Source of the DNA: a virus
Taxonomy: Duplodnaviria > Heunggongvirae > Uroviricota > Caudoviricetes
IMG/VR virus record: IMGVR_UViG_2645728010_000005
Strand: one strand, 5' to 3'
Length of the DNA stretch: 17,360 nucleotides
Shown: positions 274 to 8,153 of the stretch, one piece after another
How the letters are laid out: each line of letters begins with the position of its first letter
Numbering within the stretch: position 1 is the first letter of the stretch
Position numbers and translations under genes: made by a program
Notes under the pieces: generated by a model
Seen by the model: the letters and a program-made list of their open reading frames with translations, nothing else
What the model was told of the DNA's origin: nothing
The model's database searches: none

Positions 274-718
274 CTGCATTCGTTTCTGAGGTTTTCGCCG
301 CGTTCTTCGATGATGCCGCTGCAGTTTCGGATTTCTTTGCCGCCGCTGCGCTCTGAGAGGCGGCTTCGGCGTTGCGTGCCGCTTCTTCCACCATTGCCTC
401 AAAACGACGCAATGCCTCCGGCATGACATCATCTTCCGTCATGGCACCGAGAAAATCATTCAGCGTACCTGGTCTGGAACCTTCATAGACGGTAATGGTT
501 CCGGCATGTGAAGGCGGAAAACCTTCAACCAGCAGGGTGACGCTGTACTGGCCATGCTCAACATCCATGCTGTAACGCCCGGCTTCATCCGGATTTTCAG
601 AGGCCACCGTGTTCACCAGTACCGTGGTGCTGTTACGCTTTGCCTTCAGTTGAATAGTGCAGTTCTGTATTGGTTTTCCCGCACCATCTTTCAGCACACC
701 TGAAATCTGTACTGCCAT
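122..718 (-). pseudogene. stf: Side tail fibre Stf, N-terminal fragment only (~155 codons of Stf-like sequence, 718 down to ~274, then out-of-frame read-through to the stop at 122)
   Basis: ATG at 718..716 with SD GGAGTG upstream. Translation MAVQISGVLKDGAGKPIQNCTIQLKAKRNSTTVLVNTVASENPDEAGRYSMDV... matches the lambda Stf N-terminus as I recall it. Full-length Stf is several hundred aa longer and no tfa follows. Confidence 0.6.
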
Positions 719-776: not shown

Positions 777-2752
777 TCAGCTAATCATGATGCCTGCAGT
801 GGCTTTCTTCATCACCACAACCAGCAAATCGCTGATACTTGCTGTGGGATACCAGCCATTTACCAGCCATGCCGATACAGAAAATTCCAGTGTCATTACA
901 CCACTGCCTGCAGGCATATCAATAACACCCGTATATATCAGCGTATTATCCAGAGCCGTTCGGTTATAAATTTCAGCACCGTTTTTTCGTACTATCAGAC
1001 GGCATGAGGAGTAGATATCAGTATGATCTTGCTCATGTTTAGCGCCACTGAATGCCACCGCCGGAATAACAATTTGCCGGTCAAACGGCTGATCGTCATA
1101 AACCCTGACGGTAATGGTCCCTGATGGCCACCGCTCCGGTGCACGGGAGTCCCGGGGGAAAGCTTTGCCCACTGTTTTAACGAGATCGCCTTCAATCTGG
1201 TTCGCGGACAGTTTTCCCAGAACCCGGCAGTTCTCGTTAATCGTGACGTTGTTGAGCGTCCCGGAGTTCGCATTCACGTTACCGCTAATATCGGCATTTT
1301 TCGCCGTCAGCCGCCCGTCCGGTGTCAGGGAAAATGCCGGAGGATTACCGCCGCTGGTAATGGTGGGAGCCGTCAGATATTTCAGGAACACTTCGTTCAT
1401 GAATATCTGATCGCCCTGACCAACAAACATCGGCTTTGTGTTGCCATTCGCAGGATTAATCATCGCAATCCTGTCCGCCGCCAGCAGCACCTGACTCTGC
1501 ATACCGTCAGGGGTATTCTCAATACCGGCACCAATACCCGCGATATAAAGGCGTCCGTCCTGCATCTGCTGCAGCTTCACAGCCCACATGCTGTTCAGGT
1601 TATTATTTGTATCAACCTGAACCTTCTGTATCTGCTGGATTGCCGCACTCTGGTCTTCCAGTTTCTTATTGACGGTCTGCGTGATTTCATTACTGACATC
1701 CGTGATGGACGTTCTGATTTCCGCCAGGTCAGGCGCAAGCTGACCGTTATCAATCTGCGTCCACAACTCCTGAGCCAGATGGGTTTTCCCTATCTCTCCT
1801 TTGAAAAAATTCAGATAGCCGGATGCATCATCACTCGGCTGGCCAACAGCCTCCACGAATGCCGATTTGCCAACGGTGTTCACACTGCGGATGTAAAAAT
1901 AATAATCATGGCCCGGTTTGATATTGATACTGGCGGCTATCCAGTACAGCGCCGTGCCAAGATAGCGTGCTGTGGTTTCAACCTGCCTGATATCCGCAAT
2001 CCGCTTTTCCGAGAACCAGAACTCAAACTGTACCGTCGGATCATAAACCGCAAGATGCGGCGTGGCGGTTATCTGAAAATACCCCGGTGTCAGCTCAATC
2101 TGCGACGGCGCTGCCGGTGCGGCAATCCGGAACGATACCGACGCCGGCTCGCCCTGCTGCCCCCACGCATTTACTGCCCGGACTGTCAGCCTGTAGTTCC
2201 CCAGAGCCAGTTGTGTGAAGCGGTAAGTGGTTTCCGTCGTCCGGGCCGTGCTGACCAGTCGCTCACGGCCGTCATCCGCTGCCACGGTCAGGCGAAGCAG
2301 GAAGCTCACGCCCTTCACCACCTTCGGCGTATCCCAGCGGGCCAGCACCTGGTATTCCCCGCTGTCTGCGGTGACTTCTGCGGTCAGGTGCTGCACCGCT
2401 GGCGGCGTGACACCATTTACCGTGCCGCTCTGGTCGCCGTCAAAGTGCGCCCCGTTATCCACGATGGCCTCTTTTTCCGGTACATGCTGCACGGCGGTGA
2501 TGGCATACGTGCCGTCGTCGTTCTCACGGATACTCACGCAGCGGAACAGGCGCTGGCGCAACGTCGGCAGCTTCAGCCCCCATATGCCGGCTTAAACGTT
2601 CCGTCCCAGATACCGCTGTATTGCCGCGTCTGCGGGTTATAGTTCGACGGCACCTGCAGAATGCGCCCGCGAAGATGATAATTACGGCTCACCTGCTGGC
2701 TGCCGAACTGCTCCGAGTCCACCTGCACGCCGACCAGTGCCGTGTTCGGGTA
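777..2752 (-). pseudogene. J: Tail tip / host-specificity protein J remnant: C-terminal ~600 codons (777..~2582, track ORF starts at a TTG) plus a ~55-codon internal J segment in a different frame (~2582..2752)
   Basis: Minus-strand ORF 777..2561 (594 aa) contains [45 protein letters not shown]... and downstream blocks typical of lambda J (fibronectin-like region, [20 protein letters not shown]). A second minus-strand frame over 2583..2752 reads [57 protein letters not shown], which matches a more N-terminal part of J. Lambda J is ~1130 aa. Confidence 0.7.
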
Positions 2753-3257
2753 TCAGTTCATCCAGCGCGGCTGCTTTGTTCATGGCTTTGATGATATCCC
2801 GTTTCAGGAAATCAACATGTCGGTTTTCCAGTTCCGGAAAACGCCGCTGCACCGACAGGGGGATCCCGTCGAGAATACTGGCAATTTCACCTGCGATCCG
2901 CGACAGCACGAAAGTACAGAATGCGGTTTCCACCACTTCAGCGGAGTCTCTGGCATTTTTCAGCTCCTGTGCGTCGGCCTGCGCACGCGTAAGTCGATGG
3001 CGTTCGTACTCAATAGTCCCTGGCTGGAGATCTGTCTCGCTGGCCTGCCGCAGTTCTTCAACTTCCCGGCGCAGCTTTTCGTTCTCAATTTCAGCATCCC
3101 TTTCGGCATACCATCTTATAACGGCGGCAGAGTCATAAAGCACCTCATTACCCTTGCCACCGCCTCGCAGAACGGGCATTCCCTGTTCCTGCCAGTTCTG
3201 AATGGTACGGATACTCGCACCGAAAATGTCAGCCAGCTGCTTTTTGTTGACTTCCAT
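2682..3257 (-). CDS. nohD: Terminase small subunit Nu1 homolog, Nu1-like for ~170 codons then 21 unrelated codons (J-derived sequence read out of frame)
   Basis: ATG at 3257. Translation MEVNKKQLADIFGASIRTIQNWQEQGMPVLRGGGKGNEVLYDSAAV... is near-identical to lambda Nu1 up to ...AALDELIP, then diverges (EHGTGRRAGGLGAVRQPAGEP). Confidence 0.8.
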   Translation of the reverse strand: MEVNKKQLADIFGASIRTIQNWQEQGMPVLRGGGKGNEVLYDSAAVIRWYAERDAEIENEKLRREVEELRQASETDLQPGTIEYERHRLTRAQADAQELKNARDSAEVVETAFCTFVLSRIAGEIASILDGIPLSVQRRFPELENRHVDFLKRDIIKAMNKAAALDELIPEHGTGRRAGGLGAVRQPAGEP

Positions 3258-3460
3258 TGTTCATTCCACGGCCAAAAACAGAGAAAGGAAACGACAGAGG
3301 CCCAAAAGCTCGTTTTCAGCACCTGTCGTTTCCTTTCTTTTCAGGGGGTATTTTAAATAAAAACATTAAGTTACGACGAAGAAGAACGGAAATGCCTTAA
3401 ACCGGAAAATTTTCATAAATAGCGAAAACCCGCGAGGTCGCCGCCCCGTAACCTGTCGGA
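3258..3460 (-). other. cos site: cosN cohesive-end sequence GGGCGGCGACCT (complement of 3435..3446), with the cosB region between it and the Nu1 start
   Basis: The reverse complement of 3258..3446 reads GGGCGGCGACCTCGCGGGTTTTCGCTATTTATGAAAATTTTCCGG... and continues into the Nu1 ATG, as at the lambda left end. The sequence to the right of 3446 reads like the lambda right end. Confidence 0.75.
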
Positions 3461-3645
3461 TCGCCGGAAAGGACCCGCAAAATGATAATAATTATCATCT
3501 ACATGTCACAACGTGCATCTACGCCATCAAACCACGTCAAATAATCAATTATGACGCAGGTATCGTATTAATTGATCTGCATCAACTTAACGTAAAAACA
3601 ACTTCAGACAATACAAATCAGCGACACTGAATACGGGGCAACCTC

Positions 3646-3840
3646 ATGTCAACTAAGAACAGAACCCGCAGAACAACAACCCGCAACATCCGCTTTCCTA
3701 ACCAAATGATTGAACAAATTAACATCGCTCTTGAGCAAAAAGGGTCTGGGAATTTCTCAGCCTGGGTCATTGAAGCCTGCCGTCGGAGACTAACGTCAGA
3801 AAAGAGAGCATATACATCAATCCAGAGTGATGATGAATAA
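3646..3840 (+). CDS. Small conserved lambdoid right-end protein (64 aa), possibly DUF3950 / ribbon-helix-helix-like
   Basis: ATG 3646, 64 codons, MSTKNRTRRTTTRNIRFPNQMIEQINIALEQKGSGNFSAWVIEACRRRL... I recall an almost identical small orf between bor and cos in lambda-like phages; its function is unknown to me. Confidence 0.5.
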   Translation: MSTKNRTRRTTTRNIRFPNQMIEQINIALEQKGSGNFSAWVIEACRRRLTSEKRAYTSIQSDDE

Positions 3841-3937
3841 ACATCCCGGTTTCTTCCACCATCGCACCGGAAAAGCGACTATGAGGGTAACCCTGCGTCT
3901 GTCAGCACAGTAAAACCCGGTGTGCATCGTTTTTGAT

Positions 3938-4002
3938 TATTCCCGCACACTCACGCAGAAGGAATTCCCCGTCGGGCTACGGTCATGGTTAATGCGGGAA
4001 TA
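3938..4002. repeat. 10-bp perfect inverted repeat TATTCCCGCA (3938..3947) / TGCGGGAATA (3993..4002) with a 45-bp spacer, upstream of bor
   Basis: Read directly from the sequence; lies in the non-coding stretch 3841..4200. Confidence 0.6.
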
Positions 4003-4200
4003 CGGCGACGATACAGCGCAGCTAAAAGGGTAATGGACAGAAAGAGCGGTTTATTTCATTCCACAGGATTCTGAGTGCCCCCCCTCCTCCAATAGGCTGA
4101 GCATCCACCTATATAGTTTTAATTTTCATCAATCCATTTAACTATCGTTTAATTGTTGTCACATAGGATTCTGCCGTTTTTAACAATGCAGGATAATAAG

Positions 4201-4525: not shown

Positions 4526-4987
4526 CTATCTGCACTGCTCATTAATATACTTCTGGGTTCCTTCCAGTTGTTTTTGCATAGTGATCAGCCTCTCTCTGAG
4601 GGTGAAATAATCCCGTTCAGCGGTGTCTGCCAGTCGGGGGGAGGCTGCATTATCCACGCCGGAGGCGGTGGTGGCTTCACGCACTGACTGACAGACTGCT
4701 TTGATGTGCAACCGACGACGACCAGCGGCAACATCATCACGCAGAGCATCATTTTCAGCTTTCGCATTAGCTAACTCCTTCGTGTATTTTTCATCCAGTG
4801 CAGCAACATCACGCTGGCGCATCTGCATGTCAGTAATTGCCGCGTTCGCCAGCTTCAGTTCTCTGGCATTTTTGTCGCGCTGGGCTTTGTAGGTAATGGC
4901 GTTATCACGGTAATGATTAACAGCCCATGACAGGCAGACGATGATGCAGATAACCAGAGCGGAGATAATCGCGGTTACTCTGTTCAT
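4526..4987 (-). CDS. rzpD: Spanin, inner-membrane subunit Rz (i-spanin)
   Basis: [55 protein letters not shown]..., 153 aa with an N-terminal TM helix. The ATG overlaps the endolysin stop (ATGA). Confidence 0.85.
4585..4767 (-). CDS. rzoD: Spanin, outer-membrane lipoprotein subunit Rz1 (o-spanin), embedded in the +1 frame of Rz
   Basis: 60 aa [24 protein letters not shown]... with lipobox VVGC and a proline-rich core ([15 protein letters not shown]); lies entirely inside Rz. Confidence 0.8.
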
Positions 4988-5481
4988 TGCTGACCCCACA
5001 AACAGATTTCACGCTCAATCTCACGACGAGTCATGAGACCTTTCCATTGCTTACCGCCAGCATATGTCCAGCGACGTAGCTGATCACATGCGCCTTTGAT
5101 ATCGCCCTGGTTTATTTTGCGAAGAAGCGTCGATGTTCTGAAATTGCCAGCGCCCACGTTGTAAACGAACGAGTAAAGAGCGCCGCGCGTTGTTTCCGGT
5201 ATATCAACTTTTATGTACGGGTTAATTTGTCTGGCGACCGTGGCAAGGTCTTTATTCAGGAGGGCTTTGCATTCTGCTTTGGTATACGTTTTACCGAGCA
5301 TGATGTCTTTTCCTGTATGCCCGTGACATACAGTCCATACACCAACAATATCTTTGTATGGTATGTAGCTGACACCTTCCAGACCATCGTTACCACTTGG
5401 GCCAGTGATTAACACTGATGCTATAGCAATTGCTCCGCCACCAATAGCAGCAGCAACGGCTTTTCGTAATGATGGAGGCAT
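4984..5481 (-). CDS. rrrD: SAR endolysin (phage 21 R-type lysozyme with N-terminal signal-anchor-release domain)
   Basis: 165 aa; the N-terminus [27 protein letters not shown] is a weakly hydrophobic Gly/Ala-rich SAR segment, followed by a lysozyme-like body. Matches DLP12 RrrD / phage 21 R as I recall them. Confidence 0.9.
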
Positions 5482-5696
5482 TATTCACCTCTCGCAGCCT
5501 TGCGCTTATCTTCTTTAATCTTGAAATAAAGGTTTGTCAGGTACGTCAGCAGGCCAAATACCAGGCTACCCAGCACACCTATTGCTGCCCACTGTGAGGG
5601 CGTGACTTTATCGAGCAGCTGTAAAAACCAGTAACCGGCACTACCTGCTGAGGTGCCATAGGCGACACCCGTTGTTAACTTATCCATGGATTTCAT
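5481..5696 (-). CDS. essD: Class II holin / pinholin (phage 21 S-type) with dual-start motif M-K-S-M
   Basis: ATG 5696 with SD GAGGTG; 71 aa [71 protein letters not shown] with two TM segments. The track ORF start at 5741 is a TTG extension. Confidence 0.85.
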
Positions 5697-5911
5697 AACC
5701 CCACCTCGCAGACAAAGCGGGTGTAAATTGAGGGAATACAACGTATCGCAAAAAAGCAGAAACGTAACAGACTCGGAGTCAGTGAATAACTCAGGTATTG
5801 AGTTATCAGCTAATATCGAGACTCAAAAAATGGAAAAACCAGCTCGACGGCGGGTTTAAGCTGTGTGACGAAGTAACCACTCTTAACAGCATAACCAATT
5901 TTTTACGTACG

Positions 5912-6048
5912 TAAACCACTGAATGATATTTATGAGAATGCTACCGAGTGTTCAAAACACCACCACAAATATATAAGAAAACCTCAACAAATAACCAATA
6001 AATAATTTCCGGCGTTATTTTTAGTTGATTTAAATTAAACCACTGAAT
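5912..6048. repeat. 13-bp direct repeat TAAACCACTGAAT at 5912..5924 and 6036..6048 in the AT-rich porin upstream region
   Basis: Read directly from the sequence; both copies lie in the non-coding region 5742..6284. Confidence 0.6.
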
Positions 6049-6918
6049 TATAGAACCCCCATAAATAACAGCCATTAATATAAATTAGCTAATAGGTTTA
6101 TTTTTGTTCAAATAAGAGCCATAAATAGGTTTCGATAGAAAAAGTTCAGATAAAAATAGAGATCTACTTCACAAATTAAATGAGAAACTAAAACTTACAT
6201 CTTGAAATAATCACATTGATTAGATGAATATTTATCGCGCAGTGACATCATTTTTTAATAATAGTTCAAAAAAAAGGGCTCACGATGAAAAAATTAACAG
6301 TGGCAATTTCTGCTGTAGCTGCATCAGTACTGATGGCGATGTCTGCTCAGGCAGCTGAAATTTATAATAAAGACAGTAACAAGCTGGATCTGTACGGGAA
6401 AGTTAATGCCAAGCACTACTTTTCCTCTAACGATGCAGATGATGGTGATACTACTTATGCCCGTCTTGGCTTCAAAGGTGAAACCCAAATCAACGATCAA
6501 CTGACTGGTTTCGGTCAGTGGGAATATGAATTCAAAGGCAACCGCGCTGAATCTCAAGGTTCCTCCAAAGACAAAACCCGTCTTGCATTTGCAGGCCTGA
6601 AATTCGGTGACTACGGCTCAATCGATTACGGCCGTAACTACGGTGTAGCATACGACATCGGTGCGTGGACTGACGTTCTGCCAGAATTCGGTGGCGATAC
6701 CTGGACCCAAACAGATGTGTTCATGACTGGTCGCACCACTGGTGTTGCAACCTATCGTAACAACGACTTCTTTGGTCTGGTCGATGGCCTGAACTTTGCT
6801 GCTCAGTATCAGGGTAAAAATGACCGCACTGACGTAACTGAAGCCAATGGTGATGGTTTCGGTGGTGATGCTGCCAACTTACTGATTTAGTGTATGATGG
6901 TGTTTTTGAGGTGCTCCA

Positions 6919-7194
6919 GTGGCTTCTGTTTCTATCAGCTGTCCCTCCTGTTCAGCTACTGACGGGGTGGTGCGTAACGGCAAAAGCACCGCCGGACATC
7001 AGCGCTATCTCTGCTCTCACTGCCGTAAAACATGGCAACTGCAGTTCACTTACACCGCTTCTCAACCCGGTACGCACCAGAAAATCATTGATATGGCCAT
7101 GAATGGCGTTGGATGCCGGGCAACTGCCCGCATTATGGGCGTTGGCCTCAACACGATTTTACGTCACTTAAAAAACTCAGGCCGCAGTCGGTAA
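6919..7194 (+). CDS. insA: IS1 InsA (transposition inhibitor / N-terminal part of the transposase)
   Basis: 91 aa [43 protein letters not shown]... with a zinc-finger CxxC...CxxC; canonical InsA. Confidence 0.9.
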
Positions 7195-7616
7195 CCTCGC
7201 GCATACAGCCGGGCAGTGACGTCATCGTCTGCGCGGAAATGGACGAACAGTGGGGCTATGTCGGGGCTAAATCGCGCCAGCGCTGGCTGTTTTACGCGTA
7301 TGACAGGCTCCGGAAGACGGTTGTTGCGCACGTATTCGGTGAACGCACTATGGCGACGCTGGGGCGTCTTATGAGCCTGCTGTCACCCTTTGACGTGGTG
7401 ATATGGATGACGGATGGCTGGCCGCTGTATGAATCCCGCCTGAAGGGAAAGCTGCACGTAATCAGCAAGCGATATACGCAGCGAATTGAGCGGCATAACC
7501 TGAATCTGAGGCAGCACCTGGCACGGCTGGGACGGAAGTCGCTGTCGTTCTCAAAATCGGTGGAGCTGCATGACAAAGTCATCGGGCATTATCTGAACAT
7601 AAAACACTATCAATAA
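7113..7616 (+). CDS. insB: IS1 InsB reading frame (expressed as the InsAB' transposase by -1 frameshift)
   Basis: 167 aa ...[28 protein letters not shown]...; canonical InsB, overlapping insA in the -1 frame. Confidence 0.85.
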
Positions 7617-8153
7617 GTTGGAGTCATTACCGGTTTCGGTTTCTCCACTACTTATGAGTATGAAGGATTCGGCGTGGGTGCAACCTATGCTAAATCAGAT
7701 CGCACTGACGGTCAGGTCGCCTATGGTAAGAGCAAATTCAATGCCTCCGGCAAAAATGCGGAAGTATGGGCTGCAGGCCTGAAATATGATGCGAACAATA
7801 TCTATCTGGCTACCACATATTCTGAAACTCAGAATATGACCGTTTTTGGTAATAACCATATTGCAAACAAAGCACAAAACTTTGAAGCAGTAGCACAATA
7901 TCAGTTTGACTTCGGTCTGCGACCATCTGTTGCTTACCTTCAGTCAAAAGGTAAAGACCTTGGTGTTCATGGTGACCGAGACTTAGTCAAGTATGTCGAT
8001 GTCGGTGCTACTTACTACTTTAATAAAAACATGTCCACTTTTGTTGATTACAAAATCAACTTAATTGACGATAGTAAGTTTACCAAAACAGCTGGTATTG
8101 ATACCGACGACATCGTCGCTGTAGGTCTGGTGTATCAGTTCTAATCTGATTAC

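Follow-up and report, generated by a model that had tools for sequence, protein, structure and literature searches.

The cryptic lambdoid prophage DLP12 of the Escherichia coli B lineage carries a cos site that, by its sequence, is the original cosQ-cosN-cosB of the prophage and is intact. In the window, by which we mean the whole 17,360-bp stretch of DNA that was analyzed, this complete lambda-type cos occupies 3258–3480 on the minus strand; it comprises cosQ, cosN, and cosB (R3, the IHF region, R2, and R1), ends at the Nu1 start codon, and is 96.4% identical to lambda, in agreement with the initial annotation, which had described a complete-looking cos there. Based on its identity to the cos of a deposited phage, the site is very likely cleavable by a lambda-type terminase. 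We infer that this copy would also be cleaved in vivo and suggest that the main consequence would probably be recombination, accompanied by dead-end, one-ended packaging toward the cus and ent genes; experimental support for these consequences comes from the K-12 copy, which has another R3 allele (C53T). That DLP12 contains cos, and that an infecting lambda might cut it, has been described before (PMC3945230, PMC545071).

Over its whole length, the window matches the chromosomes of E. coli B derivatives (for example, BL21(DE3), BL21, C41/C43, and NEB strains) at 100% identity and is the reverse complement of NC_012971.2 533,908–551,267. It is the E. coli B/BL21 copy of the DLP12 prophage, inserted at the tRNA-Arg gene beside intD; this identification and the intactness of the cos site are, taken together, practically certain. 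The minus strand of the window corresponds to the lambda map orientation, and the order along it is quuD, the porin gene (split by IS1), essD, rrrD, rzpD, bor/iss, ylcI, cos, nu1', J', and stf', with bor/iss and ylcI on the opposite strand and the host genes cusS and cusR following stf'. The features on either side of cos are as follows.

355–718, minus strand: stf' pseudogene (side tail fibre), N-terminal part of 121 residues.
777–2585, minus strand: J' pseudogene (tail tip protein), C-terminal 602 residues, corresponding to lambda J 558–1132 with 68% identity.
2682–3257, minus strand: nu1', remnant of the small terminase gene, 191 residues (Pfam Phage_Nu1, E 2.9e-101).
3447–3858, minus strand: homologue of the lambda right end (lambda 48091–48502), including the ylcI/DUF3950 ORF at 3646–3840 on the plus strand.

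The left-end-like cosN and cosB are thus joined to right-end-like sequence, as the initial annotation had noted. Its statement that the large terminase subunit and all structural genes are missing holds for the large terminase gene (A), which is absent from the prophage, and needs amending for the rest: two fragments of tail genes, J' and stf', remain, and nu1 is itself truncated. Residues 1–170 of Nu1' are identical to lambda Nu1 at 167 positions (98%) and to Nu1 of phage PhiR42_1 at all 170, while the last 11 residues of Nu1 are exchanged for 21 foreign residues at a deletion junction. In the alignment, homology to lambda nu1 stops at approximately lambda bp 700 (approximately window 2748). 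A single deletion fused codon 170 of nu1 to mid-J; it took out the remainder of nu1 and all of A, W, B, C, Nu3, D, E, FI, FII, Z, U, V, G, T, H, M, L, K, and I, together with the N-terminal half of J, whose C-terminal half was kept. J' retains all C-terminal domains, the receptor-binding domain among them; an in-frame extension of J' upstream to the junction meets stop codons, and the breakpoint in J is only approximate. At the junction itself (window 2682–2750, minus strand), Nu1 residue 170 is joined to J-derived sequence in another frame, leaving a fusion in which the DNA-binding and oligomerization region is intact and the C terminus, where the large terminase subunit would bind, is foreign. 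J' is a probable candidate for ECB_00512, the "relict" J homologue in REL606 that recombined with lambda J in phage-training experiments, whereby phage fitness doubled (bioRxiv 10.1101/2020.11.02.365361).

The ylcI/DUF3950 ORF (3646–3840, plus strand) is conserved nearly base for base, start codon included, in lambda (approximately the complement of 48109–48303), where this counterpart has no annotation in NC_001416. The porin gene (nmpC/ompD-like; window 6285–8144) is interrupted by IS1 (6919–7616) in the B lineage, while the porin gene of K-12 DLP12 (530–2826 in the K-12 DLP12 stretch) is interrupted elsewhere by IS5, i.e., there were two independent disruptions by insertion sequences in two laboratory lineages; phage PhiR34_1 carries an intact porin gene at the corresponding place. 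Between bor and ylcI (window 3841–4200; 4895–6250 in the K-12 DLP12 stretch), the B copy lacks both ybcV and ybcW of K-12 DLP12 and the lambda genes lambdap78 and lambdap79. This arrangement is that of PhiR34_1 and not that of K-12; hence, the DLP12 right arms of the two lineages are mosaics that differ in their history. An Rfam scan of the whole window gave no matches.

For the comparison of the cos site, the minus strand of the window was aligned to the joined right and left ends of lambda (i.e., circularized lambda). A left-end position x corresponds to window position 3447 − x for x ≤ 137 and 3448 − x for x ≥ 139, and a right-end position y corresponds to 3447 + (48502 − y). The elements of the site are listed from cosQ to the Nu1 start.

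3470–3476, minus strand: cosQ heptamer GGGTCCT, the subsite for termination of packaging, identical to lambda 48473–48479, which we take to be the cosQ coordinates given by Wieczorek and Feiss 2001.
3433–3448, minus strand: cosN, reading GGGCGGCGACCT from 3446 down to 3435 with two flanking bp on each side; identical to lambda 48501–14 at 16/16 positions.
3435–3446: cohesive end of 12 nt, for which the plus strand reads AGGTCGCCGCCC; identical to lambda bp 1–12.
3382–3397, minus strand: R3, the critical site for binding of the small terminase subunit, lambda bp 50–65, reading AGGCATTTCCGTTCTT with one change, G54A (window 3393).
3339–3381, minus strand: R3-R2 interval with the IHF site I1 (the limits of I1 are approximate), lambda 66–108, changed at bp 73 and 102.
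3323–3338, plus strand: R2, 16 bp, lambda 109–124, CTGTCGTTTCCTTTCT; identical to lambda and inverted relative to R3 and R1.
3282–3297, minus strand: R1, 16 bp, lambda 151–166, CTGTCGTTTCCTTTCT; identical to lambda.
3257: first position of the Nu1 ATG, lambda bp 191, at unchanged distance.

cosN is used as defined in PMC9026076, and cosQ is a conserved 7-bp site (PMC4669245). The expected nicks in cosN fall at 3447/3446 on the minus strand and at 3435/3434 on the plus strand, and the cohesive-end positions 3435 and 3446 proposed in the initial annotation are correct. A 17-mer covering cosN, ACGGGGCGGCGACCTCG, occurs once in the window (3433–3449, minus strand), where approximately 0.01 matches would be expected by chance, and the inverted repeat formed by R1 and R2 was recovered in a separate repeat search. 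Compared base by base, cosN, cosQ, R1, and R2 are unchanged from lambda, and R3 carries a single change. In total, nine differences from lambda lie in 3258–3480: 48471 A>G, 48486 T>C, 54 G>A, 73 A>G, 102 T>C, 134 G>A, deletion of 138, 145 T>G, and 176 T>G. Lambda 48487–48502 plus 1–53 matches the window identically and without gaps, and cosQ is separated from cosN by the lambda spacing, with no insertions or deletions. The first insertion or deletion, at lambda bp 138, lies between R2 and R1; therefore, the critical spacings from cosN to R3 and, across the IHF bend, from R3 to R2 are untouched. The window site thus has the sequence features of a lambda-type cos with a complex cosB, namely cosN, cosQ, the order R3-I1-R2-R1, and the contact bases of R3.

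None of the nine differences is private to this prophage. The phage PhiR42_1 (PV340562; host ECOR13) is identical to the window over the cos segment at 223/223 positions and shares all nine; its complete 48.7-kb genome encodes full-length Nu1, A, W, and B directly downstream of cos. PhiR34_1 (PV340559; host MG1655) is 99.6% identical over the 223 bp, the one mismatch being that it has all the differences from lambda except 54 G>A, and its late region has the order porin-S-R-Rz-bor-ylcI-cos-nu1, as in the window prophage. Accordingly, the changes at bp 73 and 102 in the R3-R2 interval are common to both phages. A literature search found no publication describing the PhiR phages; from their GenBank records, which give a complete genome, a named propagation host, and intact packaging genes, both are presumably viable.

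G54A is the sole change inside any terminase-binding repeat. R3 spans bp 50–65, of which the small terminase subunit contacts bp 55–63 by NMR, with bp 56, 58, and 59 being functional (PMC9026076, Murialdo and Feiss), and a CG-to-TA change at bp 58 makes lambda IHF dependent (PMC4669245). G54A lies just outside the contact segment, and bp 55–65 are all identical to lambda; G54 is also part of the CGTTTCC core that is common to the three R repeats of lambda, and the change could lower the affinity of the site or raise its dependence on IHF. Residues 1–47 of Nu1, which include the recognition helix (17–24) and the wing (31–39), are identical in lambda, PhiR42_1, PhiR34_1, K-12 NohD, and Nu1' of the window; therefore, a terminase of lambda specificity should recognize the cosB of the window.

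In 1,197 E. coli genome records, K-12 Qin among them, the best-matching version of the 72-mer that extends from cosN through R3 is the one with A54, and in 2,427 records it is the lambda allele. The CpG that opens the R3 core (bp 54 at window 3393; bp 53 near position 6695 in the K-12 DLP12 stretch) exists in three natural alleles: CG in lambda and most phages; CA in B-strain DLP12, K-12 Qin, and PhiR42_1; and TG in K-12 DLP12 and 19 lambda-derivative records. The CA and TG variants are adjacent transitions that are both found in deposited phage genomes, and bp 53–54 therefore seem tolerant of change. G54A as a private degenerative mutation was ruled out, the allele being widespread and present in a deposited phage genome.

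These data bear on the possibility that the site is a dead relic that is unused in vivo, either because G54A weakens binding of the small terminase subunit or because a single chromosomal copy is not engaged during infection. That G54 lies within R3 (PMC9026076) and is conserved in all three R repeats of lambda would fit such a loss, as would the observation that, among the 75 phage records matching the 72-mer, A54 over the full length is shown only in PhiR42_1. However, the contacted and the functional base pairs are unchanged, the same allele makes up the cos of PhiR42_1 and recurs in the E. coli genomes including Qin, and the neighboring R3 change C53T is carried by the 19 lambda-derivative phage records. 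Altogether, we regard a dead relic as unlikely and favor a site that is a competent, if stranded, substrate.

The orientation of the site determines what could be packaged from it. Once cosN is nicked, terminase remains attached to the end that carries cosB (Complex I); after docking on the portal, it moves this end into the prohead (PMC4669245). In the window, cosB (3282–3397) lies at lower coordinates than cosN, and bor, the lysis genes, and the porin gene are on the cosQ side; packaging would therefore run toward decreasing coordinates and away from bor, lysis, and porin genes. The path in this direction leads through nu1', J', stf', cusS/R, cusCFBA, pheP, nfsB, and the ent/fep cluster and reaches approximately ahpC at 50 kb. 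Lambda packages approximately 37–52 kb between cos sites of the same orientation. Sequences matching cosN with at most one mismatch were found neither 3.4–53.4 kb downstream nor elsewhere in the window nor up to 59.8 kb upstream; with two mismatches, there were five matches 3.4–53.4 kb downstream against 5.3 expected by chance, none of them in the plus orientation at 37–52 kb. Because there is no partner cos in these ranges, there is no cosmid-like cos-to-cos unit, and cosmid-like packaging is excluded; nor can the window cos terminate a run arriving from the bor side. Termination of packaging requires both cosQ and cosN at the next cos (PMC4669245), and cos-type terminases need this second cos for the terminal cut; protruding uncut DNA blocks tail attachment (PMC6687093, PMC8575938). 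Finally, the element is approximately 17.4 kb long and has no replication genes in its RefSeq annotation; thus, even if it were excised, it would not form packageable concatemers as PICIs and cosmids do (PMC6739421).

The initial annotation had raised the possibility that, once a helper terminase has cut the site, neighboring chromosomal DNA, with the bor/lysis/porin side among it, is packaged as in cosmids or lateral transduction. The part of this proposal that concerns use of the site in trans stands as a prediction: the elements are intact and identical to those of the PhiR42_1 cos, and a lambda-type terminase would be expected to cleave them. One-ended packaging also has a precedent in excision-defective lambda prophages, which, in the account of Sternberg and Weisberg relayed in PMC8008629, packaged from one end and gave immature particles. 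The part that concerns cosmid-like or lateral-transduction-like mobilization of the adjacent DNA is not supported, since the cosB end leads away from bor, lysis, and porin genes, no second cosN was found within the 53.4 kb downstream or 59.8 kb upstream, the uncut DNA would not accept tails, and the remnant has no replication genes. We therefore consider it very unlikely that the cos mobilizes neighboring genes in this way, and packaging of the bor/lysis/porin side in particular is contradicted by the direction of packaging.

Rather, recombination would be the likelier and better supported outcome of cleavage. De Paepe et al. reported that K-12 DLP12 has 3.35 kb in common with lambda at 98% identity, a segment that spans R, Rz, cos, nu1, and A (PMC3945230). 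Recombinants of lambda with DLP12 were approximately 100 times more frequent than with Rac or Qin; of the right-side junctions, 10/19 adjoined cos and 3/19 lay beyond it; and the hybrids tested, including carriers of the DLP12 lysis genes or nu1, were all active (PMC3945230). From this junction mapping, break-stimulated recombination at cos of K-12 DLP12 was already proposed, with the end left of cos being free and the cosB side being protected by terminase (PMC3945230), and the DLP12 patch around cos was also noted as a recombination target by Poteete et al. (PMC545071). In addition, the 19 phage records with the K-12 DLP12-specific R3 allele C53T include Lambda_ev087, Lambda_2E9, 2H10, and 1H12. 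Lambda_ev087 has K-12 DLP12 alleles on both flanks of cos, and a complete K-12 DLP12 cos thus sits in deposited lambda-derivative genomes. The termini of the Lambda_ev087 record (LR597644.1) are assembly artefacts: its right end reads ...ACGGGGCTGTCTCTTATACACATCT, in which the initial bases of cosN run into the Nextera transposase adapter, and the left end begins at lambda bp 15.

We propose the following model for the window copy. The cos was stranded when the internal deletion from nu1 codon 170 to mid-J eliminated terminase A, every head gene, and the majority of the tail genes. Alone, the site is inert; it would become a competent substrate once a terminase of lambda specificity arrives in trans, either from a superinfecting lambdoid phage or, in BL21(DE3), from the DE3 prophage, although this single chromosomal copy may have to compete with phage concatemers for the enzyme. 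Dimers of the small subunit would assemble together with IHF on R3-I1-R2, and the large subunit would then nick cosN. In the resulting chromosomal double-strand break, the cosQ-side end with the bor, lysis, and porin genes would be recombinogenic and the cosB end would be held by terminase, and the locus would thereby become a hotspot at which DNA is exchanged with the infecting phage. Realistically, bor, lysis, and porin alleles as well as nu1 and cos would enter phage genomes through homologous recombination, with the break at cos probably helping. One-ended packaging toward nu1', J', and the cus and ent genes would yield filled heads with uncut DNA and no tail; because there is no terminal cos, productive transduction should be rare. 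We suggest that the persistence of a site of approximately 200 bp would be best explained by a recent deletion and gene flow with the lambdoid phage pool and not by a host function. Murialdo is said to have found in 1988 that terminase is lethal in recombination-deficient cells, an observation that we do not rely on for the cutting of a chromosomal cos.

A protective function for the host would be conceivable if the Nu1' fusion and the intact cosB acted as a decoy that poisons or titrates an incoming lambda-like terminase and thereby gives partial protection. The nu1' reading frame is open, its residues 1–170 are identical to phage Nu1 with just the last 11 residues replaced, the C terminus of the small subunit is the domain that binds the large subunit (PMC4669245), and the PICI protein Rpp can block lambda packaging by pairing with the small terminase subunit (PMC6739421). 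However, nu1' is part of a late operon for which no active promoter is known, and a scan for promoters and terminators around cos gave matches at chance level only; the deletion is a simple explanation for the fusion; and E. coli B supports growth of lambda, as published coevolution experiments with REL606 show (bioRxiv 10.1101/2020.11.02.365361). Such interference is thus extremely improbable, and a substrate that is cut in trans and recombines remains our preferred reading.

In a broader context, the finding is an ordinary one. Of 5,426 complete E. coli genomes, 3,982 (73%) contain lambda-type cos segments that extend over at least 80% of the 223 bp, at a median of two places per genome and a maximum of eight, and the role of the DLP12 cos in phage-prophage recombination is already published. 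The same genome collection contains 36–37 lambda-type cos places on plasmids, and in polylysogens two cos sites might by chance stand a packageable distance apart. For the B strains, the practical meaning is that a phage of lambda specificity on E. coli B/BL21, or an induced DE3 in BL21(DE3), meets a second, chromosomal cos. Cutting of this cos and recombination at it would matter for studies of phage evolution that use B strains and for problems of phage contamination or instability of production strains. The direction of packaging is corrected to run toward the cus and enterobactin genes and not toward bor or the porin gene, and productive cosmid-like transfer is not expected. More generally, the orphan cos sites of cryptic lambdoid prophages could be fixed directional starts from which a helper phage packages the host DNA alongside (here, the cus and enterobactin genes), with the break at cos also being a port for the capture of bor, lysis, and porin alleles. 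We give this generalization little credence; if it were true, it would describe a low-level counterpart of lateral transduction for cos phages, which textbooks deny.

Compared with lambda cos, the window site has the same cosQ, 16-bp cosN, R2, R1, and bp 55–65 of R3 in the same order, orientation, and spacing and at the same distance from the Nu1 start; it differs in having the nine changes in 223 bp and in being chromosomal without a cognate large terminase or head genes. In contrast to the window prophage, PhiR42_1 and PhiR34_1 are complete genomes with A, W, B, and the remaining morphogenetic genes. K-12 DLP12 (the nohD locus) and Qin belong to the same prophage family and share the arrangement of bor, ylcI, cos, and a nu1 homologue. 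Qin has the exact 72-mer from cosN to R3 with A54, as in the window, whereas K-12 DLP12 differs by C53T in R3, a change beside cosQ, a full-length nohD together with an A fragment, and ybcV/ybcW between bor and ylcI; conversely, the nu1-J deletion distinguishes the B copy from K-12 DLP12.

Cos-type PICIs such as EcCICFT073 and cosmids resemble the locus in that non-phage DNA with cosQ and cosN is packaged in trans by lambda or phi80 terminase (PMC6739421). However, PICIs excise, replicate, encode Rpp, and have a divergent cosB, and cosmids are cos-to-cos units of packageable length; the window locus, in contrast, has a cosB of the phage type and lacks both a replication module and a partner cos, and the RefSeq annotation of the element lists an integrase and remnants with no replication or Rpp-like gene. 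Similarly, a platform for lateral transduction depends on in situ replication and headful pac termination, and the element has neither large terminase nor replication genes. The excision-defective lambda prophages (Sternberg and Weisberg 1975) supply their own terminase and replicate in situ, whereas the window locus would need a helper terminase and is not amplified; the two would be alike in that a chromosomal cos is cut in situ and prophage and host DNA are packaged unidirectionally from it, with no terminal cos.
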